Shown piece by piece: positions 18,567-48,503 of a stretch of DNA of 64,000 nt. A model generated the notes under the pieces. That model was not told where the DNA came from. It searched no databases and saw only the letters and a program-made list of their open reading frames with translations. The first letter of the stretch is position 1, and every line of letters starts with the position of its first letter. Source of the stretch: an uncultured archaeon (lineage in GTDB: Archaea > Asgardarchaeota > Thorarchaeia > Thorarchaeales > Thorarchaeaceae); the NCBI GenBank assembly GCA_964473825.1, contig CAYYQL010000012.1, forward strand, positions 1,561 to 65,560. Reading direction: 5' to 3'. Made by a program: the position numbers and the translations under genes.

Positions 18567-21500
18567 CTACTTCTTCTTGACTAAGAAGAGTATCAACACG
18601 ACAACAACACCGACACCAATACCGCCAATCAGACCAATCCACAATGGATCGATACCCACTGGGGGCTCTTCCGTGGTTGTGGTGGTCGTAGTTGTGGTGG
18701 TTGTGGTGGTCGTAGTTGTGGTGGTCGTAGTTGTTGTTGGCTCGACTCCACCTGCACTGAACACCTCAGACTCCGCAGAGTCAGTCAGTCCCATCCAGTA
18801 GTCAGCGGGGCCCACAGTTGGATTCACAGTAGGATCGTTGTCGAAGACAATGACCCGAATCTTGTAGGTGTCCCGCACGATGAACTCGGATGAATCCCAG
18901 ACATAGAAGGTCTGAGTGAGGTTCACTGCTACGAGCTGGAAGGTTGTACCGCTGTCCTGAGACAGATAGAGCTCGAAGTAGAGATCATCTCCTGCGTTCA
19001 GGTCGGAGGCCGTCCACGTGATGTTCTTCGTCGTGCCAGTACCAGTGACTTCTACGTCAGAGACTACTGGTGAGAAGAAGTTCTCGAATCTCAGCTCTAA
19101 GTAGTTGACCTCGAATGCAATGTTGGTCTTGGTCGTCGCCTCAACCTGCACTGAGAAGGAACCGTTCTTGAGGAACGTGTACGTATCGTAGGTCACCTCA
19201 TCGGGAGTACCAGTCGCTGATACACCAACTCGAGTGTCTACTGTCAGTGTGTACGTACCCTCTTGCAGATCGTAGTCGAAGATACCGAACATGATTGCAC
19301 CAGACCGGGCTGCAACAATCGAGCCCTGCTCAGGTTTGGCACCAGTGGACATCTGGCTGCCCAGAATGTTGTTTGCGTAGGACCAAGTGCTGTTGTCGGT
19401 GTCAGCCCACCATGCCATGATGTCACAGTCGCCGTTCGTGAAGTCAGCAGTCACCTTGACTGTGTCACCCTCATTGATGCCAGCAACGTACTCCCAGGAA
19501 AACTGATCAAGATCAATCACACCTGAGAATGGATCGTAGTTGGCGTCCGGAATGACGAGCGGGCCTGTGCCCACGTGGTAGAGACCAGACAGGAACGAGA
19601 TCCCGACTGAGTCAACCTCGTACTCGGGCATTGCCGGTAGGTTGAATTCTGGGTAGGAAGCATTGACCACAACATGATCGCCCACAAGGGTGTCACCGTC
19701 CGTGATAGTTGCCGGACTGGGCGAGTCATTGGACGTCCAGGTGAACTGGAGGTCCTGAGTGGTTAGCTCTTCGTACCACATCACTTCGACACTGTAGTTC
19801 GCAGGTAGGAACGTTGTACCGTTCACTGCAAGCGCGTGCATGAAGAGGTAGTAGTCACCAACTGGATCGGCTGGCAAAGCAGCAAGAATCGCAGTGGTTG
19901 TTGCAGTGCCGTCAGCACCAGCAGCAAGAGATGTTGCGTTCTCATCGCGTACGTCAACGTACATGTTGTTTCCGCCTTCCGGCCAGATAACACGTACACC
20001 GAGGTAGGTAGCGTTCTCTCCAGCCTCAGGAATGTTGAGCACGATGGTTCTGAAGTCCCAGTCGTCTGGGTCACCGCCCATGCAGCCGTACATCGGCATG
20101 TCATATGGGGTCAGTTCAGAGCCATATCCATCAACAATCGTCTGTGCTGTGTCTGCTGCAACTGCAATCTGTGCCTTGACCATGACGCTCCATGGGAGAA
20201 TCAGATCTCCGTCTCCATGTTGCAGGGTTACGTAACCCTGGTGCAGACCAACGTCAAGTCCACTCGTGTCGATGGTTATGTTCACTGTATTTTCAGTGCC
20301 TCCGTCAGCGAAGGTGATGGGTGCCGGAATGGGCTCCCAGAAGATGACAGTTGCAGTGAATTCATTGCCTGGTGCTGAAGCATTGACATCATGAATCGGG
20401 TCGTGGATGACCATAGTCATGTTGCCAGCCAGTGCAGCCGCAATGCTGGTGAACGCCGGAGCGCCCCAGGACATCATGTTCGTGTTGCTCGGATCACTTG
20501 CACTGGTAAGACGGTGTAGCTCATCACCGTGGGTTCCGTTCCAGAGGTTCGGATAACCATCGTTGACATCATCGTCCTCCCAGTCGTACAAGAACATCCA
20601 AGGCTCCATGCCTGCAACTTCAGACGCATCAAAGGACACACCAATCGTGACATAGCCGTAAGCAAGCTCTGCAGCATCATATACGGCAGGAGTCAGCTCA
20701 TCACGGAGGTTGAAGTAACCGTACGCAAGGTCGCCGGTCACGTTGCTGTCCGTGTACCAGTAAGTTGTACCGGTGAACTGATGGCTCTCAGCCTCTGTCC
20801 AGTAGACAGCACTTGGAGTCCAGTCGCCAAGGTTGGCAGCTGGTTCCATAGTCTGGAACGGATCACTGTAGATCTTCTGATAGATTGTTGCGGTGTCACC
20901 TGCGTAGAGGTGTCCAAAGAACAACGAACCATCCCAGAGATCAGCTGGATAATCCTCGCTCTTGTTTGCGGGAGTTCCAGTCGTACCCCACTTCTTCCAT
21001 GGATTAGCCAAGAGTGCGGCTATATTGTTCCATGAGTCGATGTTGTAGGAAACCCAACCAGTGTCCACTTCTGCGAACTCACAGGCTCTTTCGGCATTGA
21101 TTCGTCCAAAGCCTATTGATGCCGGCTCGTAACTGAACGGATCAGCGGTCTGCTGGAGAATAGTCTTCACCATGAACGGATGCTCGATGGTGATGCCTCG
21201 TGTGTTCATTGCCTCGTAGACAAGTGCTGCAACACCTGCTGCAACAGGAGCTGCTTGACTGGTACCTGCGAAGAGTGTGTACTCTGCTGTGCTAGCGTAC
21301 CAGTAACCACCTGCGGCCATGTACTGTGCAAACCAGGGCACAGCTGCGTAGCCTCCGAGTCCTGGTGCCAGAATGTCCGGCTTATTGTAGCCAGTGTAGG
21401 TTGGACCCTTGCTTGTGAAGGATGCCAGACCCTCGTATGGCTGTGTCGGACCGTAGAGGTACTCTAGCCAATGGCTGCTTGTAGAAGCACCTACTGTGAG

Positions 21501-23357
21501 TACACCGTGTGCTGCGCCGGGCGGACCAATGGTCATGAAGCCTGAACCCTCGTTTCCTGCAGAGAATACGTGCAGGACACCGTTATAGCTCTCATCGAGG
21601 AAGCCTGGACTAGACAGGATGTTCCATGTCAGCGCGAGATAGTTCATCTCACTTGCTGGTTCAGTTATCCAACCCCAAGAGTTGGTCACGAGATCAGTCT
21701 CGTGGTCACCTGTGTAGTACCACTCACCACTGGTCTCATTCCAATGGAAACCACAGACCCATAGATATGCGCCGTAGGATCCACCATGAGTGATCAGTCT
21801 GACAGACTGAATCTTTGCACCGGGTGCGATACCTTCCATCGTGAAGTTGTCCTTTGTCACGAAGCCGTCTTCGGAGTACTCGTAGGTCAGAGCTCCTGCA
21901 CCTGCAACATGTGATGCAGTTGCAGTACCGTGAGTTCCATCGTCGAAGTACAGTGCGAAAGCATCACGATCGCTTCTGATACCGTTGAAGAGGATCTCAC
22001 TGCCAAACCAACCATGGTCGTCGTAACACCAGCCGAGTGCACCAAGGCTGAAGTCGGCAATACCATCGCCGCTGAAGTCCTTGTTGACGATCGGATTGGC
22101 AAGGTTGTATATCTCGCCCTCATCCCACTCGTCATAGAAGCTGTTATCGAATGTGGTCACAACATCATATGCGTCGTAGATGTCTGTGAGATCAACAGCC
22201 TCGTACCAGATGGCACCAGACCAGAGTTTGTTCCAGCCCAGGGTGTCCTCCCAGCCAATAATCACGTTGTTGTCGTTGCTCGTGTCATTATAGACAAGAG
22301 CCGGACCAAAGATCATTGAGAAGGGACTCCATCTCTGCTGCATGACAAAGCCAACAGAATAGTTGGTACCGGTGGCCAGTGCAGATGCGTTAGGCAGTTT
22401 GATGTCCTTCCAGACATAGTTCTCGAAGACATCTTGGACTCCCTCAACACCCCATGCATTGGAGTAGTAGTATAACCATCCAGCATGGTCATCATTACCA
22501 ATCAGATATCCTGGATAGTAGTACGAATTCACCATGGGATCCCAGCCCTCGACATCGAGGTAGACGAAGCCGTCGTCATCCACGTAGGTCAGAAGGTTAT
22601 AGGGGTCTGCTGTCCACTCAGTCACATTGACCGGAGTGGAGTTTGCGTGATAGAACGTTGGAACCAGCCCATCACCGCTTGGGTCGTAAGCACCGTGGTT
22701 GATTGCATCAAGGGCATGTTCAAGCTCTGGGTTGCCGAAGTCGGCTCCCGTGTCGAGATGTCCAACAACAACACCGCTACCGTCGTATTTGCTAGCGTAG
22801 TCTGTGCTGTCATCCGCCTGTACTACTTCCTTAATCTTGTACATATCAACCCCGATACCGGGGCCTTCAGTTTTTTCCAAGTTCTTGACCAGCTCATCTG
22901 GTCGTTCAAATCTATACTGATCGGCCTCGATTCCACCAACACCGTCGACTGCTCTCAGTGCCTCGAGAGCATCGACACCAGGCACGTTGACCAGAGCGGT
23001 CTTCATTGCCTTCAGGTCAACTGACCATTTTACCTCAACAACGTCGCTTATGCTTGTCATATCGACCCATGGGGCCATAAAGACAAGCGCACTCACGGCG
23101 CCGTCAGGTCTGGTCACGACCCTGTCGCTCAGCACGCCGCTCCGACTCCATTCAGCCAACACAGAGTCGACTGTGGCCCGGTAACCAGGCTGTTCGAGTG
23201 TCTTATACCACTCGTCCATCTGATCTTGGACCTCTGGAGTGAGCGCTGGCGGGCTGGCAGATTCTGTGCTGGCCATCGGGCCTACTGGCGCCATGAACAA
23301 AGACATGCTCAGGGCAGCCAGAAATAACAGAACTGCTACAGTTCGCTTATTACTCAT
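18567..23357 (-). CDS. giant pyrolysin-like S8 subtilase (1596 aa) with poly-Thr stalk and C-terminal TM anchor
   Basis: Signal peptide (MSNKRTVAVLLFLAALSMSLFMAP). Catalytic Asp (VVGHLDTGADF), His (HGTATASHVAGAG) and Ser (GTSQAAPVAAGVAALV) separated by very long insertions. C-terminal (T)22 run, then hydrophobic helix, then KKK. Confidence 0.88.
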   Translation of the reverse strand: MSNKRTVAVLLFLAALSMSLFMAPVGPMASTESASPPALTPEVQDQMDEWYKTLEQPGYRATVDSVLAEWSRSGVLSDRVVTRPDGAVSALVFMAPWVDMTSISDVVEVKWSVDLKAMKTALVNVPGVDALEALRAVDGVGGIEADQYRFERPDELVKNLEKTEGPGIGVDMYKIKEVVQADDSTDYASKYDGSGVVVGHLDTGADFGNPELEHALDAINHGAYDPSGDGLVPTFYHANSTPVNVTEWTADPYNLLTYVDDDGFVYLDVEGWDPMVNSYYYPGYLIGNDDHAGWLYYYSNAWGVEGVQDVFENYVWKDIKLPNASALATGTNYSVGFVMQQRWSPFSMIFGPALVYNDTSNDNNVIIGWEDTLGWNKLWSGAIWYEAVDLTDIYDAYDVVTTFDNSFYDEWDEGEIYNLANPIVNKDFSGDGIADFSLGALGWCYDDHGWFGSEILFNGIRSDRDAFALYFDDGTHGTATASHVAGAGALTYEYSEDGFVTKDNFTMEGIAPGAKIQSVRLITHGGSYGAYLWVCGFHWNETSGEWYYTGDHETDLVTNSWGWITEPASEMNYLALTWNILSSPGFLDESYNGVLHVFSAGNEGSGFMTIGPPGAAHGVLTVGASTSSHWLEYLYGPTQPYEGLASFTSKGPTYTGYNKPDILAPGLGGYAAVPWFAQYMAAGGYWYASTAEYTLFAGTSQAAPVAAGVAALVYEAMNTRGITIEHPFMVKTILQQTADPFSYEPASIGFGRINAERACEFAEVDTGWVSYNIDSWNNIAALLANPWKKWGTTGTPANKSEDYPADLWDGSLFFGHLYAGDTATIYQKIYSDPFQTMEPAANLGDWTPSAVYWTEAESHQFTGTTYWYTDSNVTGDLAYGYFNLRDELTPAVYDAAELAYGYVTIGVSFDASEVAGMEPWMFLYDWEDDDVNDGYPNLWNGTHGDELHRLTSASDPSNTNMMSWGAPAFTSIAAALAGNMTMVIHDPIHDVNASAPGNEFTATVIFWEPIPAPITFADGGTENTVNITIDTSGLDVGLHQGYVTLQHGDGDLILPWSVMVKAQIAVAADTAQTIVDGYGSELTPYDMPMYGCMGGDPDDWDFRTIVLNIPEAGENATYLGVRVIWPEGGNNMYVDVRDENATSLAAGADGTATTTAILAALPADPVGDYYLFMHALAVNGTTFLPANYSVEVMWYEELTTQDLQFTWTSNDSPSPATITDGDTLVGDHVVVNASYPEFNLPAMPEYEVDSVGISFLSGLYHVGTGPLVIPDANYDPFSGVIDLDQFSWEYVAGINEGDTVKVTADFTNGDCDIMAWWADTDNSTWSYANNILGSQMSTGAKPEQGSIVAARSGAIMFGIFDYDLQEGTYTLTVDTRVGVSATGTPDEVTYDTYTFLKNGSFSVQVEATTKTNIAFEVNYLELRFENFFSPVVSDVEVTGTGTTKNITWTASDLNAGDDLYFELYLSQDSGTTFQLVAVNLTQTFYVWDSSEFIVRDTYKIRVIVFDNDPTVNPTVGPADYWMGLTDSAESEVFSAGGVEPTTTTTTTTTTTTTTTTTTTTTTEEPPVGIDPLWIGLIGGIGVGVVVVLILFLVKKK
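18640..18725. repeat. imperfect tandem nucleotide repeat encoding the poly-Thr stalk
   Basis: Plus-strand units such as gtggtcgtagttgtggtg recur and read as ACN Thr codons on the minus strand. Simple-sequence tract. Confidence 0.7.
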
Positions 23358-23642: not shown

Positions 23643-24746
23643 TCATTTGGTTGAACGGACCAGCTTCTTGATTCCATCCACAATCTCGTGCACCATCATG
23701 ACGGCTCCGATCATCTCAACACGTGTATCTGGCGCTTTCTCATCATCTGGCCGCGAGACACGTCCCATTGCCCGACCTAGTCCTTTGACCAGACTGGTCA
23801 AGGCGATCTTTGCAGATGGGTCCAGACCGCTCCCCTCGATTGTAGAGATAAGTTCAGCCAAGTCAGATATGACGCTGTCAGTTACTTCAGAGGCGGTCTC
23901 TGCGCGTCGAGCGACATCAGCCAGCGTTGCCTTTGCCGTCTTCAGCTCTGACTCCAAGGTAGAGACTTGCTCAGAATCGACCACGGCGCTTGGTTGGGAT
24001 TCAACAACTAGGCGAAGGTCATCTATCTCAGATTGAAGAGACTGGATTATTTCATCCTTCTTGCCCATCTCAGCAAGAAGCTGCTGTTCGCGTTCTGCGC
24101 CGACTCCCGGTGCATCCTCAAGCTGCTTTGCCAGGCTCAGTTTCTCCGCCTCTGCGGCTTGAACTCGTGCCTTCAAAGATTCGAGTTCCGACTGGAGCTC
24201 CGAGAAGCTGTCTTCTCGCTCCGCGAACTGCTCCGTGAGCTGCTTCTTTTCAGCTTCGAGTTGTCGAACCGCTTCCTCCGCATTTTTCAGTGCCTCTTGG
24301 GTATTGCGCAAGTCGTCACGAAGGGCGACAAAGTCAGGATCTGGGGGAGCTATGACGTGGTGTGTGACAACACCCAGCACAATAACTACAAGGATAAGGT
24401 AGATCATGCTTGTCAGAACGGATCCGAACACAACATCAGTGGCGAATTGCAGTAGGCCTATGAGGAACCACCAGGAGCCAAAGATCAATTCATCGGGCCC
24501 CCACCAGACAGCCCCAAATCCTGTGTACAGCACCATGAGAAATGCTATGATGTGGAATGCAATGCCAACGAAGACGAGGATATTCCGTCGCAACTCGTCC
24601 CTTGGTAGATATCGTTGATAGAGAAGGAATATCATCCCAAGAAAGACAAGCGGCAGTACATAGGGAATAACGGCCAGTATGTCGCTCATTGGAAACTGAG
24701 TATCTACATTAACTCCAAGACCAGGAACAGAATATATACCTACCAA
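23643..24746 (-). CDS. membrane-anchored coiled-coil protein (4 N-terminal TM helices plus long heptad-rich domain)
   Basis: Hydrophobic N-terminal 120 aa. Then an EAEKKQLTEQFAERED...LQSELESLKARVQAAEAEK... coiled-coil. No enzymatic motif. Confidence 0.5.
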   Translation of the reverse strand: MVGIYSVPGLGVNVDTQFPMSDILAVIPYVLPLVFLGMIFLLYQRYLPRDELRRNILVFVGIAFHIIAFLMVLYTGFGAVWWGPDELIFGSWWFLIGLLQFATDVVFGSVLTSMIYLILVVIVLGVVTHHVIAPPDPDFVALRDDLRNTQEALKNAEEAVRQLEAEKKQLTEQFAEREDSFSELQSELESLKARVQAAEAEKLSLAKQLEDAPGVGAEREQQLLAEMGKKDEIIQSLQSEIDDLRLVVESQPSAVVDSEQVSTLESELKTAKATLADVARRAETASEVTDSVISDLAELISTIEGSGLDPSAKIALTSLVKGLGRAMGRVSRPDDEKAPDTRVEMIGAVMMVHEIVDGIKKLVRSTK

Positions 24747-25893: not shown

Positions 25894-28785
25894 ATGATGA
25901 ACTTGAAGCGAAAGCAGATCATTGCCATGACGCTTGCCGTGCTATTCTTGAGCCCTTTCTGGGGCTTTGTGATACCAGCCGATGGCAAGACAAACTCGAA
26001 CACAAGTACGAAGATTGGACCGATGCTCATGGAAGAGATGAGTGCCACCCCATCGGGCGATCTGATTCCGATTGTTGTTAGATTCCCACAGGGCACCACA
26101 TCGTCGGAGATGGCGAATACAGTTATGGGGTACGTAGGGAGCGACATCGCGTTGCGACATGTGTTCAGTCTCATCCCAGTTGTTTCTGCATATGCTAATC
26201 GAGATGCTATCCGTCAGTTGGCTGATATTGCTCAAGTTGAAGCTGTTGACATTGACAGAACACTCGATTTCGAGTCGCGCCCAGACTCTCACGAGCTGAG
26301 TATGAGTAACGGCGTCAGCTACATCCATCCGGACGCGATAATGGACGTTGGAGACCTCTGGAATAAGGGATTCAATGGCACCGGTATCACAGTCGCCGTC
26401 CTAGACAGTGGTGCACAAGGAGACCATCTCGACTTGGCTGATCGACTTGTGGGTTTCCAAGATTTGGTGAACGAAGAGCATGATATGGATCCTTCTGACG
26501 GCATCACGGCTTATGATGACAACGGCCACGGAACCGCATGTGCATGGCTCATCGCAGGAACAGGAGAGGGAATGGACGAGGCATACACCGGAATGGCTCC
26601 GGGCGCTGAGCTTCTGATTATCAAGGTCCTTGATGAGACTGGTTCCGGTCAGGACTCTGTAATAGCAGAAGGTATCGAATTTGCAGTGGAACAAGGTGTG
26701 GACGCAATCAGTATGAGTCTTGGAGGCAGTTGGAGCGACTCGAACTACGTGGATCCTTCAGCACTTGCGGCTCAAGCCGCCGTACGAGAGGGGCACACGC
26801 CTGTGTTTGTTGCTGCAGGAAATGACGGGCCCGCAACGGAAACAATCAACTCTCCTGCAATAGTGGAAGAAGTCGTGGCTGTTGGAGCATCCTCAGGGGC
26901 GAGTGGCGTCGTGTCATTCAGTAGTAGAGGTCCTGTCATCAGGACGATAACCAATCCACCAGGAGTATTCACGAGGCCCGATATCTTGGCGCCAGGCTCC
27001 AATGTGGTATCAGGCCGATGGACTGGCGCAGACTCCTTCGAATACCCCCTCTACAACTTCAGCCAGTTCGGAAATCTCTACACGCAATGGTCAGGAACCT
27101 CCGTGTCTGCACCACTGGCTGCAGGGGTATCAGCGCTCCTCATGAATCAGTATACAGGGCTTACGCCCCTTGAAATAAAGAGCTACCTGATGAAGGGAGC
27201 CACAGACCTGAAACAAGATGCTATGGCTCAGGGCCACGGAATTGTCAACGCCTCAAAGTCCTCTGAGCTCATCAATAGTACATCGCGAATGATCACTGTG
27301 GCAGCCCCTCTAAGGTATCCGACATTGCCCGGCGGGAACGGTGTTCTCATTGTCGGAGACGAACGTGAGGCACAGAATGTCACAGTCATTTCAACTGTGA
27401 ATCTTGGGCAGGCAGAAATCCAGATCCACGGAAATGCAAGCGATTTCATAGTGACAGAAGATGCCGTTGACATCCGTGCGGGTTATTCTTACTTCAGCAT
27501 CAACCTAGAAGTCCCTCAAGACCTCTCCCTAAGTTCGACGGGCCACTATGAAGCGTGTCTGCAACTCATTGCAGAAAATGTGACAGCCTGTAGCATTGAG
27601 ATCGATTTCACTATATCTACATATGGCGGCAGGTTGCTGGTAGACATGTCTCATCACTCCCTTGATGATCCGGATGACCCGACCTACTATCGTTACTTTG
27701 AAGACCACCTCCGTGGCAAGGGAGTGATAATGGACCTATTTTCGGAGCCCATTGAGGCGGCTCCGATTCGATATGGAGATCTCTCACAGTCCGATGTCTT
27801 CATGATAATGGACACCGAAACCTACTACACAGACGCCGAGGTTGAGGCCATCCACCAATTCATCCAGGATGGGGGTACTCTGCTGATTCTTTCAGAGTTC
27901 TATGACAGTGGCACCCAGAGTGCCAGCTTTGCCATTGAATCCTATAACAGGATTCTTGCACCTGTCGGCATTCAGTGCGAAGAGAACGGAATAGGCGTGG
28001 GAATGACCCAGAACACGGGCAGGTTCTACGGCGAGTCATACGATGGAGTTGTTGAAGACGATCCGCTTACCTTGGATGTTTCGGACCTGTATATTTTGAT
28101 GGGCAGCACATTCAGTGTGGACCCTTCTGTTGCAGGTGCACAAGGACTATTCTGGATTGATTCTGACAAGACTCACGCGGTGCTCGCTAAGGCTGACTAT
28201 GGAAACGGAAAAGTGATTGCGGTCTCAGATGGATCCATTCTCTATGATAGCACAGTATATGATGCAGTCAGGGGAGAAGCAGACAATCTTAATCTTCTCA
28301 GGAACATCGCTGAGAACGTGGTCCCGGCTAGACCGAGAATATTCGATGTGGTCCTGAACAGAGGAGAGATTGGAGAAGAGGCTAATGTCACGACGTACAT
28401 CTTTGACGAAGACCTTGAAACTGTTTCAATAACAATCACCAGCCCGAGTGGTAATAATGTGACCGACAATATGGTTAAGTCCTTAGGCTACAAGTTCACA
28501 TCGAGCTTCGTGATGGAAACAGGAGGTTTTTACGACATAGCAATCAGAGCCGTGGACTCAGAGGGTAATGTGAAGCTGTTCAAGAAGACCTTCCTTGTAG
28601 CTGCCGAAACGGTTGATCCCGAGTTCTCAACCCTGGTCATGGTAGGTTTCTTAGCAACCGTAGCAGTTGGAATCGTCTATGTGGCTTATCTCAAGTATGG
28701 CCGCAAGAAACGGTCTAGAAGATATGATGATAGTGAATGGGAGATTGAGGTTGAGGATAGAGGTAGGCCGCCTGAGATAGAATAG
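25894..28785 (+). CDS. S8 subtilase (about 960 aa) with C-terminal TM anchor
   Basis: Catalytic Asp (VAVLDSGAQGDH), His (HGTACAWLIAG) and Ser (GTSVSAPLAAGVSALL). Start moved to MMNLKRKQIIAMTLAVLFLSPF at 25894 because the signal peptide begins there. C-terminal helix FSTLVMVGFLATVAVGIVYVAYL then KYGRKKRSRR. Confidence 0.85.
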   Translation: MMNLKRKQIIAMTLAVLFLSPFWGFVIPADGKTNSNTSTKIGPMLMEEMSATPSGDLIPIVVRFPQGTTSSEMANTVMGYVGSDIALRHVFSLIPVVSAYANRDAIRQLADIAQVEAVDIDRTLDFESRPDSHELSMSNGVSYIHPDAIMDVGDLWNKGFNGTGITVAVLDSGAQGDHLDLADRLVGFQDLVNEEHDMDPSDGITAYDDNGHGTACAWLIAGTGEGMDEAYTGMAPGAELLIIKVLDETGSGQDSVIAEGIEFAVEQGVDAISMSLGGSWSDSNYVDPSALAAQAAVREGHTPVFVAAGNDGPATETINSPAIVEEVVAVGASSGASGVVSFSSRGPVIRTITNPPGVFTRPDILAPGSNVVSGRWTGADSFEYPLYNFSQFGNLYTQWSGTSVSAPLAAGVSALLMNQYTGLTPLEIKSYLMKGATDLKQDAMAQGHGIVNASKSSELINSTSRMITVAAPLRYPTLPGGNGVLIVGDEREAQNVTVISTVNLGQAEIQIHGNASDFIVTEDAVDIRAGYSYFSINLEVPQDLSLSSTGHYEACLQLIAENVTACSIEIDFTISTYGGRLLVDMSHHSLDDPDDPTYYRYFEDHLRGKGVIMDLFSEPIEAAPIRYGDLSQSDVFMIMDTETYYTDAEVEAIHQFIQDGGTLLILSEFYDSGTQSASFAIESYNRILAPVGIQCEENGIGVGMTQNTGRFYGESYDGVVEDDPLTLDVSDLYILMGSTFSVDPSVAGAQGLFWIDSDKTHAVLAKADYGNGKVIAVSDGSILYDSTVYDAVRGEADNLNLLRNIAENVVPARPRIFDVVLNRGEIGEEANVTTYIFDEDLETVSITITSPSGNNVTDNMVKSLGYKFTSSFVMETGGFYDIAIRAVDSEGNVKLFKKTFLVAAETVDPEFSTLVMVGFLATVAVGIVYVAYLKYGRKKRSRRYDDSEWEIEVEDRGRPPEIE

Positions 28786-28789
28786 TGGG

Positions 28790-30073
28790 TTAGTCGATTG
28801 GGCCAAGTGTTTCCTCTAGAAGGCTCTTGATTTGGTCATGGCGAGGATCAAGCAGAGGTGCCTCACTTAACTTCAATCCCTCTTCCATCCTCGCGAGGAT
28901 TTGATACCCGATCCTCGGACCCATCCTTGATGCAAGAACCTGTCCACCAACAATACGGTCGTTCATATCAGTGACCAAAGCTATCTTTGCAGCCTCGCTA
29001 TCATCCTGAAGAAAAGTGACCCTTATCTCTTTACCAACTCTGCTTGCTATGTCCGAAGAGTGGCCCATGCACACGATGTCCGTGTCGAATATTCGGTCGT
29101 ACTGAAATCTGAGCTTGGTCTCAGGGTAGAGGCGATTGTTTCCAGTAGCAGCAACGCCAGCTTGACGACCTGCTCGGGCAGCTACACTGCCGATAGGCAT
29201 CAGCACAGGTTCGCCTGTCAAGAAGTCATGCATCTGAACACAGTCGCCTACAGCATAGACATTCTCATCAGATGTTTGCATCCTTTCATTAACCGCTACC
29301 CCACCAAGCTCACCGATATCGAGACCGAGTTCTCGTGCGAGTGTGGTGTTTGGAGTGACACCGGTCATGAATAGAACTGCTTGGGTCTCGATGGTCTTGT
29401 TGCCAACAACAAGTCCCTCAACCTGCTCATCACCGAGAACCCGCTGTGGCGCATTGCCTTGATGTATACGAATAGCTGAGGGGATTCTAGCTTGAAGATC
29501 TTCACTAAGCTCGGGTTCCAAAAGGCGCCGTACAAGCCGGGAACGCACAATGATGTGTACTTTCTTTCCTAGCTCGAAGAGTCGGTCTGCAAATTCTAGG
29601 CCGCTGAACCCCGCTCCAACTACAACCACGGTCTCGATGTTAGATAGACGCTCACCGACTCTTGACGCATCTGCAACATCTTGGATTGTGTAGACACCTT
29701 CAAGGTCGGTGCCTGGGATATCAGGAACATAGGGTTTCCCGCCCGTTGCAAGTATGAGTTTATCATAGCCCACGGTCTTCTCTTCCCCCCCTGGACCAAT
29801 GACGACGATATTCTTGTCCTTCAGGTTGCCCGACACTACACGATGACCTGTCACAACCTCAATACCCTTCTTCTCAAGCGATTCGGGCGTCCAGTCGGGG
29901 ATGTTGAGTCTGTCAGTCTCAGGGTATTCCAATGCTAGTGATGACCCGGGCTTTCTGTGTGCTGGAGATGTCTCCTCGGTTATGATAACAACCTCAGCAT
30001 CCTGAGCGAACATATGTGCTGCATTGGCCGCGGAGACCCCTGCGGGGCCATAACCAACCACGATGATTCTCAT
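28790..30073 (-). CDS. FAD-dependent pyridine-nucleotide oxidoreductase (NADH oxidase / ferredoxin-reductase-like; lacks the CoADR/Nox redox Cys)
   Basis: Two Rossmann motifs (IIVVGYGPAG and VVVVGAGFSG). Conserved AVGDC. ATG overlaps the stop of the upstream S8 gene (ATGA at 30070-30073). No Cys at the position of the CoADR/Nox active-site Cys. Confidence 0.8.
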   Translation of the reverse strand: MRIIVVGYGPAGVSAANAAHMFAQDAEVVIITEETSPAHRKPGSSLALEYPETDRLNIPDWTPESLEKKGIEVVTGHRVVSGNLKDKNIVVIGPGGEEKTVGYDKLILATGGKPYVPDIPGTDLEGVYTIQDVADASRVGERLSNIETVVVVGAGFSGLEFADRLFELGKKVHIIVRSRLVRRLLEPELSEDLQARIPSAIRIHQGNAPQRVLGDEQVEGLVVGNKTIETQAVLFMTGVTPNTTLARELGLDIGELGGVAVNERMQTSDENVYAVGDCVQMHDFLTGEPVLMPIGSVAARAGRQAGVAATGNNRLYPETKLRFQYDRIFDTDIVCMGHSSDIASRVGKEIRVTFLQDDSEAAKIALVTDMNDRIVGGQVLASRMGPRIGYQILARMEEGLKLSEAPLLDPRHDQIKSLLEETLGPID

Positions 30074-34729: not shown

Positions 34730-34738
34730 TGGTACCTC

Positions 34739-36133
34739 CTAGTCTTTTCCTCCAAAAGTAATGCCACCTTTCGAAAATCGAATCCGGGGACCTCCTGCAG
34801 AGATGTATGCAGTCTGGCCCTTTCCACACCTTCCAACTTCGAACGGAAAATCTTCGTCGGCAACAGCCTCAATGTTGAACAAAGCATCAGTTGCGATGCC
34901 TGAAATCGAAAGGTCTGTAACCGGTCGCCCGATTTCACCGTTGACTATCTCATAGGCCTCTTGAACGCCGACTTGAAAGCTTGCATTCATCTGTGCCTGC
35001 CCACCCCTGAAATCTGCACAGTAGTAACCAAACTCAATACCCTCAAAGATCTCGTCATATGAGTAGTCACCCCTCTCAAACATAGTATTTCGCATACGAA
35101 TGATAGGTGGATACAGATAGCTCTCTGCGCGAGCGTTACCAGTGGGACGTTGATCTATCTTGGCAGCATACTCCCGATTAGTCATCAGCTCAGTGAGCAC
35201 CGAGTCCTTTATGATGTCTACCCGGCTTGTGGGAGTTCCTTCATCATCGTACTTCGCAGTTCCGAGATTGCCCGGGTCCGTTCCGTCATCAACCATATTG
35301 ACGCCGGGAGCCGCCACGACCTCGCCAAGCCTGTCATTGAAGGGTGTGTGTACTGTCAAGTCTGCCTCGGCAAGGTGGCCGAGAGCTTCATGTGCCAACA
35401 CGCCGATAACCCTTGGGCCAATGACACAAGGGAAGCTACCACTTCTTGCTGAAACACCATCAAGCTGGAGCTTGACACGACGAGCCACCTCTCCGCCTAT
35501 GAATTCGGGAGTTGCGGTCATTTTCATGAACTCCCAGCCCTGGTGAGTAGAGGCCTCCTCGTAACGAGCTGCGCTCAGCCGAGTTCCTTCTTTACCAGTC
35601 ACCCACGGGTAAATCCAGACAAGGTTCACTGGCGATTCTATCCTTGTCCCTTCGGAGGTCAGAAGAAACTTCTTTCCCGAAGCGTTTTGCATCTTCAGTG
35701 TCACGGCAGTGATTCGTTCATCATAGTCGCGAATCACCCGCGTCGTATCTCGTAAGTACGTCACTTTCTCTTCGACAGAGATATCACGAGGGTCTTCTTC
35801 CACTGAGCTCTTCACCGTATCGTGAACAGATCTTGTCTCGGCGAGTTCAATAGGTTCCCTTCGGGTCGGGGCCGCAGCCTTCGCAATCGAGTATGCATCT
35901 TTTATCGCTGAATCTAGACTTTCCAAGTCGCCAGTAGTTACAAAGCCCCAGGCTCCATCAGCCAAGACTCGTACTGCAACGCCTCTCTCGATTCTCTGAG
36001 TCAGGGCGTTTATCCGTCCGTCGTCCATCTGAATGTACTCAATAAAGACATCTTCGCCACGGAGCTCGACATATGTTGCCTCCAAGCCACGGGCCGTTTC
36101 CATCGCCTGTTCCAGTAAATCAAACAAGATCAA
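34739..36133 (-). CDS. tldD: TldD-like zinc metalloprotease
   Basis: HEALGHLAEAD (HExxxH) plus conserved GNARAE and C-terminal G-rich blocks of the TldD/PmbA fold. Confidence 0.8.
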   Translation of the reverse strand: MILFDLLEQAMETARGLEATYVELRGEDVFIEYIQMDDGRINALTQRIERGVAVRVLADGAWGFVTTGDLESLDSAIKDAYSIAKAAAPTRREPIELAETRSVHDTVKSSVEEDPRDISVEEKVTYLRDTTRVIRDYDERITAVTLKMQNASGKKFLLTSEGTRIESPVNLVWIYPWVTGKEGTRLSAARYEEASTHQGWEFMKMTATPEFIGGEVARRVKLQLDGVSARSGSFPCVIGPRVIGVLAHEALGHLAEADLTVHTPFNDRLGEVVAAPGVNMVDDGTDPGNLGTAKYDDEGTPTSRVDIIKDSVLTELMTNREYAAKIDQRPTGNARAESYLYPPIIRMRNTMFERGDYSYDEIFEGIEFGYYCADFRGGQAQMNASFQVGVQEAYEIVNGEIGRPVTDLSISGIATDALFNIEAVADEDFPFEVGRCGKGQTAYISAGGPRIRFSKGGITFGGKD

Positions 36134-38074: not shown

Positions 38075-39806
38075 AGCAGCTGCTCCATGTCACAGCCCCG
38101 GTCAAGTCAAAGAGCAGTGGCTCATTTCGCACCAGTCTGATGGCTGAATTGACTCCGATGACAGGATACAAACGAACGTGCAGTCTCATGCACTCATCCA
38201 GCAGTTGTTGTCTCCAATGCGAAACTGAGCATACGACGGCGAATGACTCAGATGACGAGTGAAACAGGGTTGCCTCAAGTGTATGTTCTCTGGAGATGTC
38301 TGCTACAGATTTTGGCTCACCCACAAGGAGATGCGTGGGTGAAATACCCAAGTGATTGAAATCAGGAACCAAGATCAGATGCCCACTATCAATCAACGAC
38401 TTCATTCGCTTCGTTGAGCCAATCAATGAGTCTGACAGAATCTGCAGGCTTCCGGTCCACAGTCGCTCAAGTACTGCCTTCTCCACATTGCTTATCGTTC
38501 CACCATTGAACTCAAGCCTTCTTGAAAAGGTCAGTCCAGACGAAAGCTGTACCCCCATAGCAGCAAGAGCACGTTCAACCAGATACCTCCCACGCGACAC
38601 CAACCCGCCCGGCTTAGGAAAGATATCTTCTAGATTCAGCATGTACTCCATAGCATCGATTGGCGTATCACCTTCGTCCAGAACCTGCATAGTCCTTGGA
38701 GATTGCTCATCAACATAGACGATTTCGCAGAGTGCATCGTGTTGCAAGCCACCAGTGTCAAGATTGACATGCAACTGACGGTCCAGAGACTGTGGGTTAC
38801 ACCAAGCTCTGGGTGCGAGATGGAAACGTTCGAGTGTGTTACGCCTTTGATTCAATGCATTGAGATCTGTCAGGTCGCCCAAGAATCTCTTGAAGACTGG
38901 AAACTCCTCGGTACCTGTGCTGAGCTCGAGCGTGTCATGAATCATCTTGAGACTCTTGGTCCATTTCGAAGTATCTCCAATGGGTGGACTCGATTTCGCC
39001 ACCTCCAACAGGCGCAAGAAACCTTGCTCCTGGTAGGTGTCAAGGTGCCGAATGAAATGCCGCATCAACGGATGATAGTCCGTCTCTTTGGAGTTCTTGA
39101 GCCAGAGGTCTTGCCATTCTTCACTCATGGGACTCTTCAAGACAGCAGCAGCCACGGCATTTCCCAGACAATTCAGGTATTCTAGTCTGGTCCTCTGTGT
39201 ATCCAATAGCAAGAGAAATGCCGCGCGATTTGACAGGCCTTCAAGGGGTGCACCATGCAACAGAGACTCTTGGAAGACTAGCGCATCGTCCTCAATCTTC
39301 AAGCCAAAGGACTGCGTGTGTTCGGAAAGGGATTGCTTGCTCACATAGGTCTCTGGAAATGGTGGCTCGGTCAATGCGAGGAATCTGGATACCCTCTTGA
39401 TAGCTCTTGAGAGAGAGTTCCTGAGTTCCTCAGTTGCCTCCATCCTCAACTCTTCTTCGGTGGGTTCTTGTGGTTTCTCGAATTTTGCCAGGAGGCGAGA
39501 TTTCTCGCGAATCTTCTTGTATATCGAAGTTTCGACATTCTCCCCCACCAGCATGACTCCTTCTCTGTTGAAGAAGTACACACGAACCCTATCAAGATTG
39601 ATGACAGCAACAAGATACACTATGCCTTGGAGGCGTTTGAAGTGCTTGCGCATGGTCGAGGCTTTCACCCGCAACACATCAACCGCAACAGCGCCAGTTT
39701 CTCGGAACTGGCGTTCACCGAACGCAGCTATCTCCTTCGGAACACCTCTCAGACTTCGCGGCATGATCACAGCTCCACACTGTAGACTTCTCAAGTGGCT
39801 CAACAT
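38064..39806 (-). CDS. large hypothetical protein (580 aa), no recognisable domain
   Basis: Long uninterrupted ORF with protein-like composition. Its 3' end overlaps the convergent GTPase gene by 11 nt. No catalytic or binding motif identified by eye. Confidence 0.5.
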   Translation of the reverse strand: MLSHLRSLQCGAVIMPRSLRGVPKEIAAFGERQFRETGAVAVDVLRVKASTMRKHFKRLQGIVYLVAVINLDRVRVYFFNREGVMLVGENVETSIYKKIREKSRLLAKFEKPQEPTEEELRMEATEELRNSLSRAIKRVSRFLALTEPPFPETYVSKQSLSEHTQSFGLKIEDDALVFQESLLHGAPLEGLSNRAAFLLLLDTQRTRLEYLNCLGNAVAAAVLKSPMSEEWQDLWLKNSKETDYHPLMRHFIRHLDTYQEQGFLRLLEVAKSSPPIGDTSKWTKSLKMIHDTLELSTGTEEFPVFKRFLGDLTDLNALNQRRNTLERFHLAPRAWCNPQSLDRQLHVNLDTGGLQHDALCEIVYVDEQSPRTMQVLDEGDTPIDAMEYMLNLEDIFPKPGGLVSRGRYLVERALAAMGVQLSSGLTFSRRLEFNGGTISNVEKAVLERLWTGSLQILSDSLIGSTKRMKSLIDSGHLILVPDFNHLGISPTHLLVGEPKSVADISREHTLEATLFHSSSESFAVVCSVSHWRQQLLDECMRLHVRLYPVIGVNSAIRLVRNEPLLFDLTGAVTWSSCSSR

Positions 39807-40043: not shown

Positions 40044-40517
40044 CTAACTCACAGCGGTAGTTGTTGCATCGTCATATGTCGGCATCAGAATCTCACGCGT
40101 CGGTGCCGTGTTCATTACAACATCTAGGATTTCATCGTCTCTCATGAGAATGCATCCCAGAAACTCGTAGGTGAACTTATCCAATCGTATATTGACACCT
40201 CGTCTGGGGACCTGTGTAAGCAACAGGACTATAGCAAAATCACCACGTGGAAGCTGATTGAGTATTCCCCGTTTCATGTCAGGTTCTAGCTCCTCCTCCA
40301 GCTGGCGGGTCATGATCCCTCGCTCAATGAAACTGTACCTGATGCGCTCGAAATCGCCAGAGGAGTTCTTCTTCGGTCTGATGAATGATATGGAATATCC
40401 GAGTCTCTTGAGGGAGTTGTAGCCAATCATTGTTCTATAGAGAGGCGGACTCAGTGGTTCAAGCTCGACTTTTCGCAACTCGACGATTTCCTCATCACGT
40501 TGTACTTTCAGATTCAC
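40044..40517 (-). CDS. hypothetical protein (157 aa)
   Basis: ORF of consistent length with the adjacent 580-aa gene 240 bp upstream on the same strand. No motif. Confidence 0.4.
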   Translation of the reverse strand: MNLKVQRDEEIVELRKVELEPLSPPLYRTMIGYNSLKRLGYSISFIRPKKNSSGDFERIRYSFIERGIMTRQLEEELEPDMKRGILNQLPRGDFAIVLLLTQVPRRGVNIRLDKFTYEFLGCILMRDDEILDVVMNTAPTREILMPTYDDATTTAVS

Positions 40518-45275: not shown

Positions 45276-48200
45276 CTAGTTCCGCCTTCTATTGTAAAGA
45301 GCTGCCAGTATTATGAGTCCCAGTATAGATGCCAACATCAGCGCCAAGATGAGGTACTCAGGATCTCCAGGGGTTGTGGTCGTTGTGCTGGTCGCTGTTG
45401 AAGTTGTGGTCGTCGTTGTGGTCGTCGTTGTGGTTTCTGACTGCACGGTATAGGAATAATCGGAAGAGACCGCCCAGTTGCCGATTGTATCCTGAGCATA
45501 GATGCGGTATATGACCTCAGTGCCTCCTGGGAGACCCGGTATGATTGCAGAGTAGTCGTTGTTCGATCCGCTCATGGTTAGATTGATCCAAGCTGTTCCA
45601 TTATAATAAGAAAGGACGACCATGTTGACAGCCGTATCATCAGTAACCGTCACAGTGATGTTGACCTCTTGATAAGCAACGGGACTACCGGGGTCACCCG
45701 ATGGTGTACCGATAATAGGCGGATTCTGCTCAGCCGCAACTGTTGTGTATTCAAAACTCTGGGAGGTGTTCATGTTTCCTGCTGTGTCATTGGCGGTGAT
45801 GCGATACTCGACAGTTGTGGCGAGTGGCTGACCGGGTATTACACCTGAATACACACTACCGTCTAGTGCCATCAGAGTCTCCGTGAATGAAACCCATCCA
45901 TCCAGTGTCCAGTTCAAAATGACTTTGTCTACACCTGATGAGCCTGTGGGTTCAATCACGTCAATAGTGATGAGAACATCATGATTCTCTGCGGGGGTTG
46001 TGGCGTTTCTCCAGTGGTCCTCAAGTTGGGGAGGAATGGAGTCCCCCACATTGAAGGTGGCAACTGTGGTTTCAACATCATTGCCTGCAGTGTCATTAGC
46101 ATAGACTGAGAAACTGACACTATCCCCGTAATCAAACGAACCGATGAGTGTGCTGTAGTTACCACTCGGTTGCTGCTCCATGAGAAGAAATGTCGGATCA
46201 GACCATCCACCTACTTCATACTTGCAGAACACCGAGTCGATGGCCGCATTGTCAGTCACATTCGCTTCAATCTGCACCATCTCGCCGTAGTCAACATCAG
46301 TGGGAGAGCGGCCTACAGACAGAACTGTCGGAGATGTGGTGTCAATGAACGCGACAGCGGCGAAGACGTCAAGTTTGCCGTGGCCCCAGACATTGTTTGG
46401 TGTGTCGCCGGTGTAGCTATCATTCCGACCTGTTGATCTGATAATACTGTGCACCTGTGTCCCGAGTGAAGGGTCGAGCTGAAGCATCAATGCCGCGCAG
46501 CCAGCTACATGTGGCCCAGATGCCGAGGTGCCACTGAATAGCCTGTAGCTTCCGAACTGGCGGTCAAACGGCAGTTGCCCATACGCATTGTACCATGTAG
46601 CCCAGCTGGAGGCATTGGTGTAGTCTGAGATGATGTCGTATCCTCCAGGAGCAGCAATACCCTGTTTCGATATCTCGTCGATTCTTGGTCCTCTCGATGA
46701 GAAACTGGCAATATCACCAACTACACCGCCGCTTACGAGGTTTCTCGTCCTGTAACTTGCCACACTGAGCGCCGAGTCCGCGGTAGAAGGCCACGTGATG
46801 TGATAATCGTTGGAAATGTCACTGATCCAAACTGCGCCGCCTGTCCAAGACGTCTTATCATCAGATATGAAGCCATGAAAGGTGGTATTAGCTGGAGTAG
46901 TCACATTTAGCTGATGCCACGGAGGCGCGTTGCCGGACCCCGTTGTCGGCAGTGTCCCCTTTATCCATATGGCAAGCATCTGTGTAGATCTATCTGAAAC
47001 CGACACAAAAGAATCGATACTGAAAGGGTATCCTACAACATTGTCTGTGTTCCAGCTCCAATATCCAACACCCGGGTGGAGGTAGACGATGAACTGGAGA
47101 GGACCACCCAAAGACTGTAGATTGAAGATCAAGCTGAAGTTGCAATTCTGAAAGTCAGTAGAGTTTACTGAGAGTACGGTCATGTAGACTGACTCTATCT
47201 CCTGATTCAGATACGGATCATCGCTTGGAAAGGGGATTGAGAAATCCACTTGCTTAGCAACATTGGCAGATGTGTTGAACAGACTGTGCTTGTCCTTTCC
47301 ACCCAGATTCCCACTGGGAGAGATGACCGGGATTCCGTCGGCAACGATTGTGTCAATGAGAGTTTCAGAGGCCGAACTCCCATCCAAATACTCATAGGTC
47401 CAAGAACCAATCTCGGTGAGAATGGCATCAGCACCGTGATTATAGGCATATGTCAGTCCCTCTTCGACTGTCAGTGATGTGCCCTGAGAACCTAGGACTT
47501 TGATCATCATCAATTCAGCTCGGGGTGCTACGCCCACATATTTTCTGAAACCTAGCTGTCCGCCAAGAAGAATGCCTGCAACAGCCGTGCCATGGCCATC
47601 TGTATCCTCATGAGTACTCTGTCTAAGATTTACCCCCCTCTCCCAGACCTGAGTATTATCGGAACCATCCTGCTCCACGATGTACCTCGTCTTTGGAGTC
47701 GTAAGCATCAGCAGTTTTTCACCCACATCAAGCCGATCATTGTTGTTGGTGTCATTGACAACGAAAAACGGTTCTCCGATCTGGGGGACTCCATCAGCTG
47801 TCACATTGTCAACCCATGTCCAATCGGTTGTGGCATTGAAAGTGCCATCACCATCCAGATCCAGATAGTAGAGAACCTCATCAGCATCAGGAGATAAATC
47901 ATTGTTCAGATCTATGTAGTCAGTCCCATTGGTTGGCTCATTATCGGAGTTGTCATCAATCCAGTCATATTCGGTTTCTCCGGGGAACCAGAGGTCTGGA
48001 TGAGTCCAGTCAACTCCGGAGTCCAAATCAGCCACCAAAATGCCTTTGCCAGTAGCATTCTTACCGAGCTTATCGATGATATTCCATGCCTCGTCAGCAT
48101 TGATCTCTGGGATAGAGAGATCACGGGTTGCATGAAGGTATCTACTCGGCGTCTGGGGCTTGACAGCCGTTATCACGCCCAGATTCATGACACTTTCAAT

Positions 48201-48503
48201 ACTCTCCACAGGCCCCTCTAGCAGATAGTAATCCCCGACACGGCTGGATTCAGGGCTTCCTAAACCGAAGGTCACTCCAGCCATCTCGAGCTCATAGCGT
48301 ATTGTTGGGGTCAGCGGAGCTGTGAACTGTGCGATGATGGGAAGCAGCCCGCCAAACTCGTCTGCAATGCGATGGAAATCCAACGAACTCTCCTTGGGAG
48401 ATGTATTGATTTGCCCACCTGCGACGGCATTACTGTCACCAAGTAACACAGGAAATGATGCCAGCAGAATCAGGAACAACATGAATGTAACGGCTCTCTT
48501 CAA
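45276..48503 (-). CDS. S8 subtilase (1075 aa) with poly-Thr stalk and C-terminal TM anchor
   Basis: Signal peptide MKRAVTFMLFLILLASFPVLLG. Asp (VADLDSGVDWTHPDL), His (HGTAVAGILLGG), Ser (GTSASGPHVAGCAALM). C-terminal ETTTTTTTTTTTSTATSTTTTTPGDPEY then LILALMLASILGLIILAAL then YNRRRN. Confidence 0.88.
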   Translation of the reverse strand: MKRAVTFMLFLILLASFPVLLGDSNAVAGGQINTSPKESSLDFHRIADEFGGLLPIIAQFTAPLTPTIRYELEMAGVTFGLGSPESSRVGDYYLLEGPVESIESVMNLGVITAVKPQTPSRYLHATRDLSIPEINADEAWNIIDKLGKNATGKGILVADLDSGVDWTHPDLWFPGETEYDWIDDNSDNEPTNGTDYIDLNNDLSPDADEVLYYLDLDGDGTFNATTDWTWVDNVTADGVPQIGEPFFVVNDTNNNDRLDVGEKLLMLTTPKTRYIVEQDGSDNTQVWERGVNLRQSTHEDTDGHGTAVAGILLGGQLGFRKYVGVAPRAELMMIKVLGSQGTSLTVEEGLTYAYNHGADAILTEIGSWTYEYLDGSSASETLIDTIVADGIPVISPSGNLGGKDKHSLFNTSANVAKQVDFSIPFPSDDPYLNQEIESVYMTVLSVNSTDFQNCNFSLIFNLQSLGGPLQFIVYLHPGVGYWSWNTDNVVGYPFSIDSFVSVSDRSTQMLAIWIKGTLPTTGSGNAPPWHQLNVTTPANTTFHGFISDDKTSWTGGAVWISDISNDYHITWPSTADSALSVASYRTRNLVSGGVVGDIASFSSRGPRIDEISKQGIAAPGGYDIISDYTNASSWATWYNAYGQLPFDRQFGSYRLFSGTSASGPHVAGCAALMLQLDPSLGTQVHSIIRSTGRNDSYTGDTPNNVWGHGKLDVFAAVAFIDTTSPTVLSVGRSPTDVDYGEMVQIEANVTDNAAIDSVFCKYEVGGWSDPTFLLMEQQPSGNYSTLIGSFDYGDSVSFSVYANDTAGNDVETTVATFNVGDSIPPQLEDHWRNATTPAENHDVLITIDVIEPTGSSGVDKVILNWTLDGWVSFTETLMALDGSVYSGVIPGQPLATTVEYRITANDTAGNMNTSQSFEYTTVAAEQNPPIIGTPSGDPGSPVAYQEVNITVTVTDDTAVNMVVLSYYNGTAWINLTMSGSNNDYSAIIPGLPGGTEVIYRIYAQDTIGNWAVSSDYSYTVQSETTTTTTTTTTTSTATSTTTTTPGDPEYLILALMLASILGLIILAALYNRRRN
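45358..45430. repeat. tandem nucleotide repeat encoding the Thr stalk of the fourth S8 gene
   Basis: Recurring ggtcgtcgttgtggtcgtcgttgtgg units on the plus strand, read as ACN codons on the minus strand. Confidence 0.7.

Follow-up and report, generated by a model that had tools for sequence, protein, structure and literature searches.

Four S8 peptidase genes in a thorarchaeal contig

We analyzed a 64,000-nucleotide stretch of contig CAYYQL010000012.1 (the window; positions 1,561 to 65,560 of the forward strand, assembly GCA_964473825.1) from an uncultured archaeon of the family Thorarchaeaceae, which carries four large subtilase genes of peptidase family S8, here called S8A, S8B, S8C and S8D. 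The original prediction had described these genes, together with a TldD/PmbA locus at 33371-36133, as a proteolysis island of recently expanded, pyrolysin-like paralogs. All four S8 open reading frames (ORFs) are present where they had been placed, and the TldD/PmbA pair, recognized by its Pfam domains and a HEALGH motif, indeed sits among them (Table 1). The four proteins match the Pfam family PF00082 (Peptidase_S8) with 116.2 (S8A), 177.9 (S8B), 134.4 (S8C) and 108.1 bits (S8D), against a gathering score of 21.8. We mapped their catalytic residues by BLASTP onto D32/H64/N155/S221 of subtilisin BPN', four residues that were confirmed by script in the reference sequence. The mapping gave D171/H212/N310/S403 for S8B, D163/H301/N393/S606 for S8C, D161/H304/N399/S660 for S8D, and H476/N602/S700 for S8A, whose Asp was assigned as D202 from the invariant HLDTGAD motif that starts the Pfam match. 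The catalytic residues are invariant in the family alignments of S8A and S8B. Judging from sequence, all four are true S8 subtilases with the canonical Asp, His, Asn and Ser in order, as had been proposed.

The signal peptide and C-terminal anchor expected of each protein were also recovered, as a single hydrophobic N-terminal segment preceded by Lys or Arg, and a single C-terminal 19-residue segment with a Kyte-Doolittle value above 2.3 followed by basic residues; in S8A and S8D, poly-Thr linkers precede the anchor. The long insertions between catalytic residues that had been ascribed to all four proteins are found in three of them: S8A has one, of 274 aa, between Asp and His, while S8C and S8D have two each, one of ~140 aa between Asp and His and one of 213 (S8C) or 261 aa (S8D) between Asn and Ser. 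In contrast, the catalytic residues of S8B are spaced by 41/98/93 aa, near the 32/91/66 of subtilisin. Likewise, the term pyrolysin-like holds loosely for S8A, S8C and S8D, given their insertions and C-terminal extensions, but not for S8B, which is nearest to Tk-SP and the subtilisins. For S8B, we preferred the ATG at 25894 over the GTG at 25654 that begins the longest ORF, because the former results in a signal-like N-terminus and because the 963-aa ortholog in a sister genome matches it in length. The start of S8C is either the TTG at 33246 or the ATG at 33231.

Table 1. Subtilase genes, S8B domains and associated genes in the window
Feature	Position	Residues	Strand	Basis or remark
S8A, 1596-aa subtilase	18567-23357		minus	Pfam S8 2.3e-33; catalytic residues; conserved position
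cc367, coiled-coil protein, synteny marker	23643-24746		minus	only sub-threshold coiled-coil Pfam matches
S8B, 963-aa subtilase, S1P-like architecture	25894-28785		plus	Pfam S8 3.6e-52; AlphaFold2 model; Foldseek
S8B signal peptide (predicted)		1-~28	plus
S8B prodomain		~40-120	plus
S8B compact S8 domain		150-462	plus	D171, H212, N310, S403
S8B beta-sandwich P-like domain	27295-27618	468-575	plus
S8B GIFT domain (alpha/beta)	27628-28323	579-810	plus
S8B immunoglobulin-like domain		815-902	plus
S8B transmembrane helix	28618-28701	909-936	plus
S8B cytoplasmic tail	28702-28782	937-963	plus	disordered in model; basic cluster, EWE, C-terminal PPEIE
Pyridine nucleotide-disulphide oxidoreductase, 427 aa	28790-30073		minus	Pfam Pyr_redox_2 5e-54
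S8C, 1058-aa subtilase	30070-33246		minus	Pfam S8 6.4e-39; Csp-like PDB matches
PmbA-like subunit, 452 aa	33371-34729		minus	Pfam PmbA_TldD_3rd 2.7e-71; without HExxxH
TldD subunit, 464 aa	34739-36133		minus	three PmbA_TldD Pfam domains above cut-off; HEALGH at residue 248
S8D, 1075-aa subtilase, sister paralog of S8C	45276-48503		minus	Pfam S8 6.9e-31
M24 peptidase, prolidase-like	6718-7959			Pfam/domain scan
M29 peptidase, partial match	51621-52643			domain scan
ORF with HEYEHH motif	52944-54173			motif check

The four genes are ancient orthologous lineages in a conserved gene order

The EF-Tu/EF1A-like GTPase encoded at 36401-38074 on the plus strand, which has an N-terminal extension of ~125 aa and is conserved in 23 Thorarchaeota/Promethearchaeota loci, served as the synteny anchor. 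It is 97% identical to its counterpart in the metagenome-assembled genome (MAG) of an uncultured archaeon, 91% identical to that of Thorarchaeota TEKIR_12S, and 62-72% identical to those of ~20 other Thorarchaeota/Promethearchaeota MAGs. We assessed synteny by tblastn of the window proteins against the GTPase-bearing loci; S8A fell outside these loci, and its position was taken from the contexts of S8A homologs. The order cc367, S8B, oxidoreductase, S8C, (PmbA, TldD), GTPase, two proteins of 580 and 157 aa, prenyltransferase-like protein, DUF1015 protein, aminotransferase and S8D recurs in almost all loci that extend far enough to include it. In relatives, S8A lies between cc367 and a 2-hydroxyacid dehydrogenase gene, followed by MarR, CitG, SIR2, GrpE, DnaK and DnaJ, as it does in the window. 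The whole gene order from S8A to S8D, with the flanking DnaK/DnaJ/GrpE genes, was found again in ~15-20 Thorarchaeota MAGs.

The large S8 ORFs of the syntenic loci match their positional counterpart in the window with 600-900 bits and 42-60% identity, versus 45-190 bits and ~25% identity for the next-best window paralog. By gene, S8C orthologs are 42-52% and S8D orthologs 49-60% identical at the same position; the cc367 orthologs, whose position is also kept, are 42-43% identical. The window paralogs, on the other hand, share 25-38% identity over partial stretches in BLASTP comparisons, and S8C and S8D are the only pair recognizable as sisters across the whole catalytic region (4.7e-43, 25% identity over 700 aa). 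Since the positional orthologs (42-60%, with the marker GTPase at 62-72%) are closer than the paralogs (25-38%), we infer that the S8 duplications are older than the Thorarchaeota radiation. A tandem duplicate of the S8C ortholog is present at 4-4862 of CAYWJO010000003.1, a Thorarchaeota MAG contig (locus L019); no other recent S8 duplication was seen in the neighborhood.

The composition of the S8 genes (GC content 0.50-0.53; GC content at third codon positions 0.51-0.58) falls within the spread of the neighboring housekeeping genes, and their codon-usage distances (0.59-0.87) compare with 0.53-1.11 for the neighbors. No integrase or transposase was found in domain scans of all window ORFs of at least 150 aa, and conserved core genes stand among the S8 genes, namely those for DnaK/DnaJ/GrpE, the EF-Tu-like GTPase, the DUF1015 protein and the aminotransferase. 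With ancient paralogs, native GC content and codon usage and a conserved gene order, the region is therefore a piece of the native core chromosome rather than the product of recent expansion or of acquisition as an island. Thus, the recent expansion of paralogs that had been claimed is contradicted by the identities, and horizontal acquisition, which had been put forward for checking by GC and codon usage, finds no support in composition, gene order or the domain scans. The conserved synteny also makes moot the explanation that four S8 genes came to lie within 30 kb by chance.

S8B is one of a family of membrane-anchored S8-GIFT proteins found across Asgard archaea

S8B has more than 120 orthologs, and its AlphaFold2 model (43 orthologs) has a predicted local distance difference test score (pLDDT) of 82 and a predicted TM-score (pTM) of 0.73. 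In its ectodomain, sub-threshold Pfam matches were seen to DUF4350, ABC_transp_aux/GldG, MBTPS1_4th and IFT52_GIFT, and a profile of the non-catalytic part retrieved from the PDB the GIFT domain of IFT52 (9e-4 and 2e-3) and residues 666-731 of site-1 protease (S1P) at 0.013. The GIFT assignment is thus supported at the sequence level, S1P not being specifically the closest match. In the cytoplasmic tail, the basic cluster, the EWE motif and the extreme C-terminal PPxIE motif are kept in 43 of the 43 orthologs examined while the rest of the tail varies, which would imply a cytoplasmic binding partner of S8B.

Searching 1.84 billion representative sequences with a profile of the S8B module, we obtained 111 proteins at E<=1e-10. 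Among the 150 matches listed, 33 have S8 motifs upstream of the module, which always starts ~480-540 residues into the protein, and every cluster with a named source is from Asgard archaea (Thorarchaeota, Asgardarchaeia, Ranarchaeia, Helarchaeota, Heimdallarchaeota, Odinarchaeia, Lokiarchaeota and Promethearchaeota). Nine relatives of ~1220-1340 aa (P0163, P0173, P0175, P0183, P0186, P0188, P0198, P0233 and P0267), the named members of which come from Odinarchaeia and Promethearchaeota, carry, in place of the S8B tail motifs, a zinc-ribbon-like CxxCG...CxxCG tail past the transmembrane helix. Such a tail points to a protease outside the cell that is joined to a module in the cytoplasm, which may bind nucleic acid or protein.

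In a Foldseek search of the PDB with the S8B model, the ectodomain of human S1P ranked at the top (9csd_A, E 3.4e-37; 8uw8_A, 6.7e-35), ahead of Tk-SP and the subtilisins. The structural alignments span 773-803 columns, nearly the whole S1P ectodomain, at ~19% identity, with global TM-scores of only 0.37-0.48. In the published structure, S1P has, in order, a signal peptide, prodomains, the S8 domain, a beta-sandwich of P-like type, the GIFT subdomain, a transmembrane helix and a short cytoplasmic tail, and the GIFT subdomain is described as unique to it among the proprotein convertases (PMC11231238). S8B shares this architecture and may act similarly, as a membrane-tethered processing protease. 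Sequence matches to the catalytic domain in the PDB rank differently, with Tk-SP (3afg) at 6e-45, BPN' at ~1e-23 and human S1P at 8e-20. On S8B, the Pfam family PF23090 (MBTPS1_4th) reached 18.6 bits, below its cut-off of 27; phmmer comparison of the non-catalytic module with S1P gave E~0.09; and when a broad profile of the Asgard S8B family was run against a word-indexed database, the matches were Asgard fragments and two bacterial GIFT proteins, with no S1P of eukaryotes among them. Membership of S8B in the S1P family is thus not established, as two tests at the sequence level came out negative, and orthology is not shown because the catalytic domain is nearer to Tk-SP and the subtilisins by sequence. 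A Heimdallarchaeota relative (P0266) was considered as a bridge to S1P and ruled out by its catalytic domain, which is nearest to Tk-SP and the subtilisins, S1P lying outside its top 60 PDB matches.

Insertions and C-termini of S8A, S8C and S8D

S8A consists of a signal-like N-terminus, a prodomain region, the S8 domain with the D202-H476 insertion, ~800 aa of beta-rich C-terminal domains and the anchor. Its 16 full-length homologs used here are 42-56% identical, with D202/H476/N602/S700 invariant. Sequence matches in the PDB are confined to residues 591-765 (KP-43/SubHal, TPPII and tomato SBT3), and AlphaFold2 modeled residues 1-1190 poorly (pLDDT 64, with values below 50 in the catalytic core). 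With this low-confidence model, Foldseek ranked TPPII first (E 1.6e-9, TM-score 0.2), followed by Tk-SP, KP-43, SpyCEP/C5a peptidases and cucumisin. The resemblance to TPPII is a weak lead, with which the loose pyrolysin-family label is consistent without being strong. At the C-terminus (18567-18710), a Thr/Pro-rich linker is followed by a D-P-L motif, a near-invariant, GxxxG-rich transmembrane helix (IGLIGGIGVGVVVVLILFLV) and KKK at the extreme end. S8D ends in a poly-Thr linker, the sequence PGDPEY, the transmembrane helix and NRRRN, so that the C-termini of S8A and S8D have the same generic tripartite layout of linker and motif, helix and basic end. Archaeosortase/exosortase signals (PGF-CTERM, PEF-CTERM, PEP-CTERM and others) were considered and rejected, there being no NCBIfam CTERM match either with whole proteins at E<=1 or with isolated C-termini at E<=10. 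The S8A anchor is arranged like a sortase-type signal and may represent either a dimerization helix or a sorting signal of Asgard archaea that has not been described before.

The Asp-His insertion of S8C contains three putative Ca2+ loops of the DxDxDG type, and the protein continues with a beta-rich C-terminal region, a transmembrane helix and a short basic tail. Its best PDB sequence matches are the clostridial Csp germination proteases (1e-21), continuous over residues 276-660 including the 213-aa Asn-Ser insertion; the NCBIfam model CspBA matched at 6e-25 with 87 bits, far under its cut-off of 1250. S8D has its insertion sites in common with S8C and carries in addition three tandem immunoglobulin-like repeats of ~100 aa each, with a weak Big_3_5 match, and 23 N-glycosylation sequons. 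Apart from such weak immunoglobulin-like matches in S8D, domain scans of the insertions and C-terminal extensions of S8A, S8C and S8D returned nothing above threshold.

The TldD/PmbA pair and other peptidases

The TldD and PmbA-like proteins are adjacent paralogs, both with PmbA_TldD domains above the Pfam cut-off, and only TldD has the HExxxH motif (HEALGH), as is also the case for the E. coli partners. Because neither protein has a signal peptide, both are predicted to be cytoplasmic and to stand outside the cell-surface set. The cluster of surface-tethered endopeptidases that had been proposed thus narrows to the four S8 proteins, which are probably exported and membrane-tethered. About half of the syntenic loci have the TldD/PmbA pair; in six (L005, L008, L009, L014, L022 and L024) it is missing from the interval between S8C and the GTPase, and hence it is a variable element of the neighborhood. 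In L005 and L014, ~2.3 kb of unassigned sequence lies in the corresponding gap.

TldD, PmbA, S8C and the oxidoreductase gene are co-oriented on the minus strand, with a gap of 9 bp between TldD and PmbA, a gap of 124 bp between PmbA and S8C and an overlap of 4 bp between S8C and the oxidoreductase gene. The overlap makes co-transcription of the last two probable, and their adjacency is kept in all loci that cover it; the four genes together may form one transcription unit. The further peptidases that had been reported elsewhere in the window were found as well, as a prolidase-like M24 peptidase, a partial M29 match and an ORF with a HEYEHH motif (Table 1).

Role of the four proteases and competing explanations

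We consider it probable that this locus is a conserved stretch of core chromosome in which four subtilase genes of ancient divergence happen to lie, each of them a separate orthologous lineage, and that the main role of their products is the breakdown of detrital protein. Our account of the export, autoprocessing, glycosylation, substrates and nutritional role of S8A-S8D is one that we infer throughout. Each protein would be exported by the Sec route as a zymogen bearing an N-terminal propeptide, would process itself, and would then stay on the cytoplasmic membrane by its single C-terminal helix, with a Thr-rich, probably glycosylated stalk keeping the catalytic head off the membrane in S8A and S8D. 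The different insertions and accessory domains imply different, and thus non-redundant, substrates of the four enzymes, which would explain the retention of all four since before the group diversified; that all are kept at fixed positions likewise argues for non-redundant roles. Most likely, extracellular detrital protein would be cut to peptides, which would be imported and passed to cytoplasmic peptidases, the candidates for the latter in the window being TldD/PmbA, the prolidase-like M24 peptidase and the M29-like protein. S8B is the likely exception: its possession of a GIFT domain and of a conserved motif in the cytoplasmic tail suggests a processing or regulated role rather than one in bulk digestion. 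The protein-scavenging lifestyle that had been read from the density of peptidases is plausible and fits published genomics and transcriptomics of Asgard archaea, but it is not new: expressed extracellular and membrane-bound serine peptidases have been described in Thor and other Asgard archaea (PMC6737245; 10.1101/858530; PMC8072921).

Several points weigh against this account. The signal peptides were called from hydrophobicity and charge only, and the window yielded no peptide transporter. The S8 genes lie on both strands with unrelated genes between them, an arrangement that does not indicate co-regulation, with TldD-PmbA-S8C-oxidoreductase as a possible exception. The GIFT domain and conserved cytoplasmic motif of S8B fit poorly with a purely nutritional role, and the near-invariant transmembrane helix of S8A may point to a role in sorting or oligomerization that lies outside this account.

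That the region is a recently expanded, possibly horizontally acquired island of pyrolysin-like paralogs is scarcely credible. Although four S8 genes and TldD/PmbA do lie within 30 kb, S8C and S8D are recognizable sisters and locus L019 has a recent tandem duplicate of S8C, the identities of paralogs and positional orthologs, set beside that of the marker GTPase, run the other way, composition and codon usage are native, conserved housekeeping genes are interleaved with the S8 genes, the domain scans revealed no mobility genes, and S8B is not pyrolysin-like; synteny and positional orthology refute this reading. A functional basis for the co-location, with a TldD-PmbA-S8C-oxidoreductase operon joining surface proteolysis to cytoplasmic peptide processing within a wider proteolysis regulon, seems to us unlikely. 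The co-orientation and tight spacing of the four genes and the S8C-oxidoreductase adjacency in every covering locus speak for it, but TldD/PmbA is missing in six loci that retain S8C and the oxidoreductase gene, S8A, S8B and S8D belong to other transcription units, S8B being convergent, no regulatory motif common to the genes was found, though no search aimed at one was made, and the conserved synteny of the whole 40-kb block, including unrelated housekeeping genes, suffices as an explanation. The proximity of TldD/PmbA, M24 and M29 to the S8 genes is accordingly put down to conserved synteny rather than to a demonstrated functional link.

There is a modest chance, in our estimate a minor one, that one or more of the four proteins, above all S8B, are instead non-nutritional membrane processing proteases, which would cut particular surface or membrane proteins in the manner of S1P and be coupled to the cytoplasm by the conserved tail. 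In favor of such a role, human S1P is the best solved structural match of S8B over ~770-800 columns, with the same domain order (PMC11231238), the GIFT domain is supported by sequence, the EWE and PPxIE motifs occur in all 43 orthologs, and other Asgard relatives have a zinc-ribbon cytoplasmic tail. However, the TM-scores are low, the catalytic domains of S8B and its Heimdallarchaeota relative are nearer to Tk-SP and the subtilisins than to S1P, the MBTPS1_4th match stays under its cut-off, the non-catalytic profile ranks IFT52 above S1P, no eukaryotic S1P was retrieved by sequence, and no substrate or partner of S8B was identified. The further proposal that the S8B family shares common ancestry with the full S1P architecture, as an archaeal antecedent of the protease that acts first in regulated intramembrane proteolysis (S1P, then S2P), is quite improbable on present evidence.

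On the reading we prefer, that of a conserved core-chromosome piece with separate subtilase lineages, four ancient and individually conserved proteases at fixed positions across the Thorarchaeota would be stable and non-redundant components of the cell surface; this conservation therefore makes them good markers or targets for proteomics and heterologous expression. The S8 annotation is already present in public MAGs, and peptide scavenging by Asgard archaea, including Thorarchaeota, has been published. Within the literature that could be searched, two results are new, namely that the four proteases are deeply conserved one to one and in synteny, and that there is an Asgard-wide family of S8-GIFT membrane proteases with S1P architecture; we found no literature linking Asgard archaea to S1P.

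Neighboring genes

A MarR-like winged-helix gene (48720-49211, plus strand) is divergent from S8D, with an intergenic region of 217 bp, and a second small MarR gene occurs near S8A in relatives (L025, 16704-16970); the two are possible local regulators. Between the GTPase and S8D, the proteins of 580 aa (38064-39806) and 157 aa (40044-40517), both encoded on the minus strand, have no Pfam match and keep their position in every Thorarchaeota locus; the identity of the 157-aa protein between loci is 77-94%, unusually high compared with its neighbors. Further along the window, a 310-aa protein (54654-55586, minus strand) has matches to Roc/Arf-family small GTPases, a kind counted among the Asgard eukaryotic signature GTPases. 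A 724-aa ORF (56413-58587, minus strand) without a Pfam match has a lipoprotein-like N-terminus (LLSLFIVGMIASC) and is possibly a surface protein. A radical S-adenosylmethionine protein with an N-terminal PqqD-like domain (59237-60658, plus strand) has an architecture typical of maturases of cofactors or of ribosomally synthesized and post-translationally modified peptides.

Comparison with known systems

The TldD/PmbA pair is a typical representative of the M103 TldD/PmbA heterodimer, with nothing unusual about it. S8A, S8C and S8D resemble the pyrolysin family (pyrolysin, TPPII, C5a peptidase/SpyCEP and cucumisin) in their large intradomain insertions and long C-terminal extensions. TPPII has an Asp-His insertion of ~200 residues, to which the 274-aa insertion of S8A can be likened; however, TPPII forms homo-oligomers in the cytosol, and S8A is a predicted extracellular protein with a membrane anchor. 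CspB/CspA/CspC likewise resemble S8C and, to a weaker degree, S8D, and their jelly-roll insertion lies at the same Asn-Ser position as the insertion of S8C. Unlike the Csp proteins, S8C and S8D have an added Asp-His insertion with DxDxDG loops, a transmembrane anchor and an archaeal host, with no link to spore germination.

S8B matches Tk-SP of Thermococcus kodakarensis and the subtilisins across the whole catalytic domain, with similar catalytic spacing. Tk-SP, however, is soluble and secreted, with a C-terminal beta-jelly-roll, whereas S8B adds the GIFT and immunoglobulin-like domains, the transmembrane anchor and the conserved tail. The best solved structural counterpart of the S8B family is instead the eukaryotic S1P (MBTPS1/SKI-1). 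By its sequence and AlphaFold2 model, S8B would be like S1P in its type-I topology, its domain order and a basic cluster in the cytoplasmic tail, and would differ from it by an extra immunoglobulin-like domain ahead of the transmembrane helix and by its predicted location in the archaeal plasma membrane, S1P residing in the Golgi. For S8B, neither a SPRING-like partner nor an SREBP-like substrate nor an RxxL-type autoprocessing site was identified. If the ancestry with S1P is true, the tail motifs (EWE...PPxIE, or the zinc ribbon) would be handles for cytoplasmic sorting or signaling partners; and if the architecture is homologous, S8B would be a new candidate among the eukaryote-like membrane and trafficking components of Asgard archaea, making the origin of S1P directly testable.

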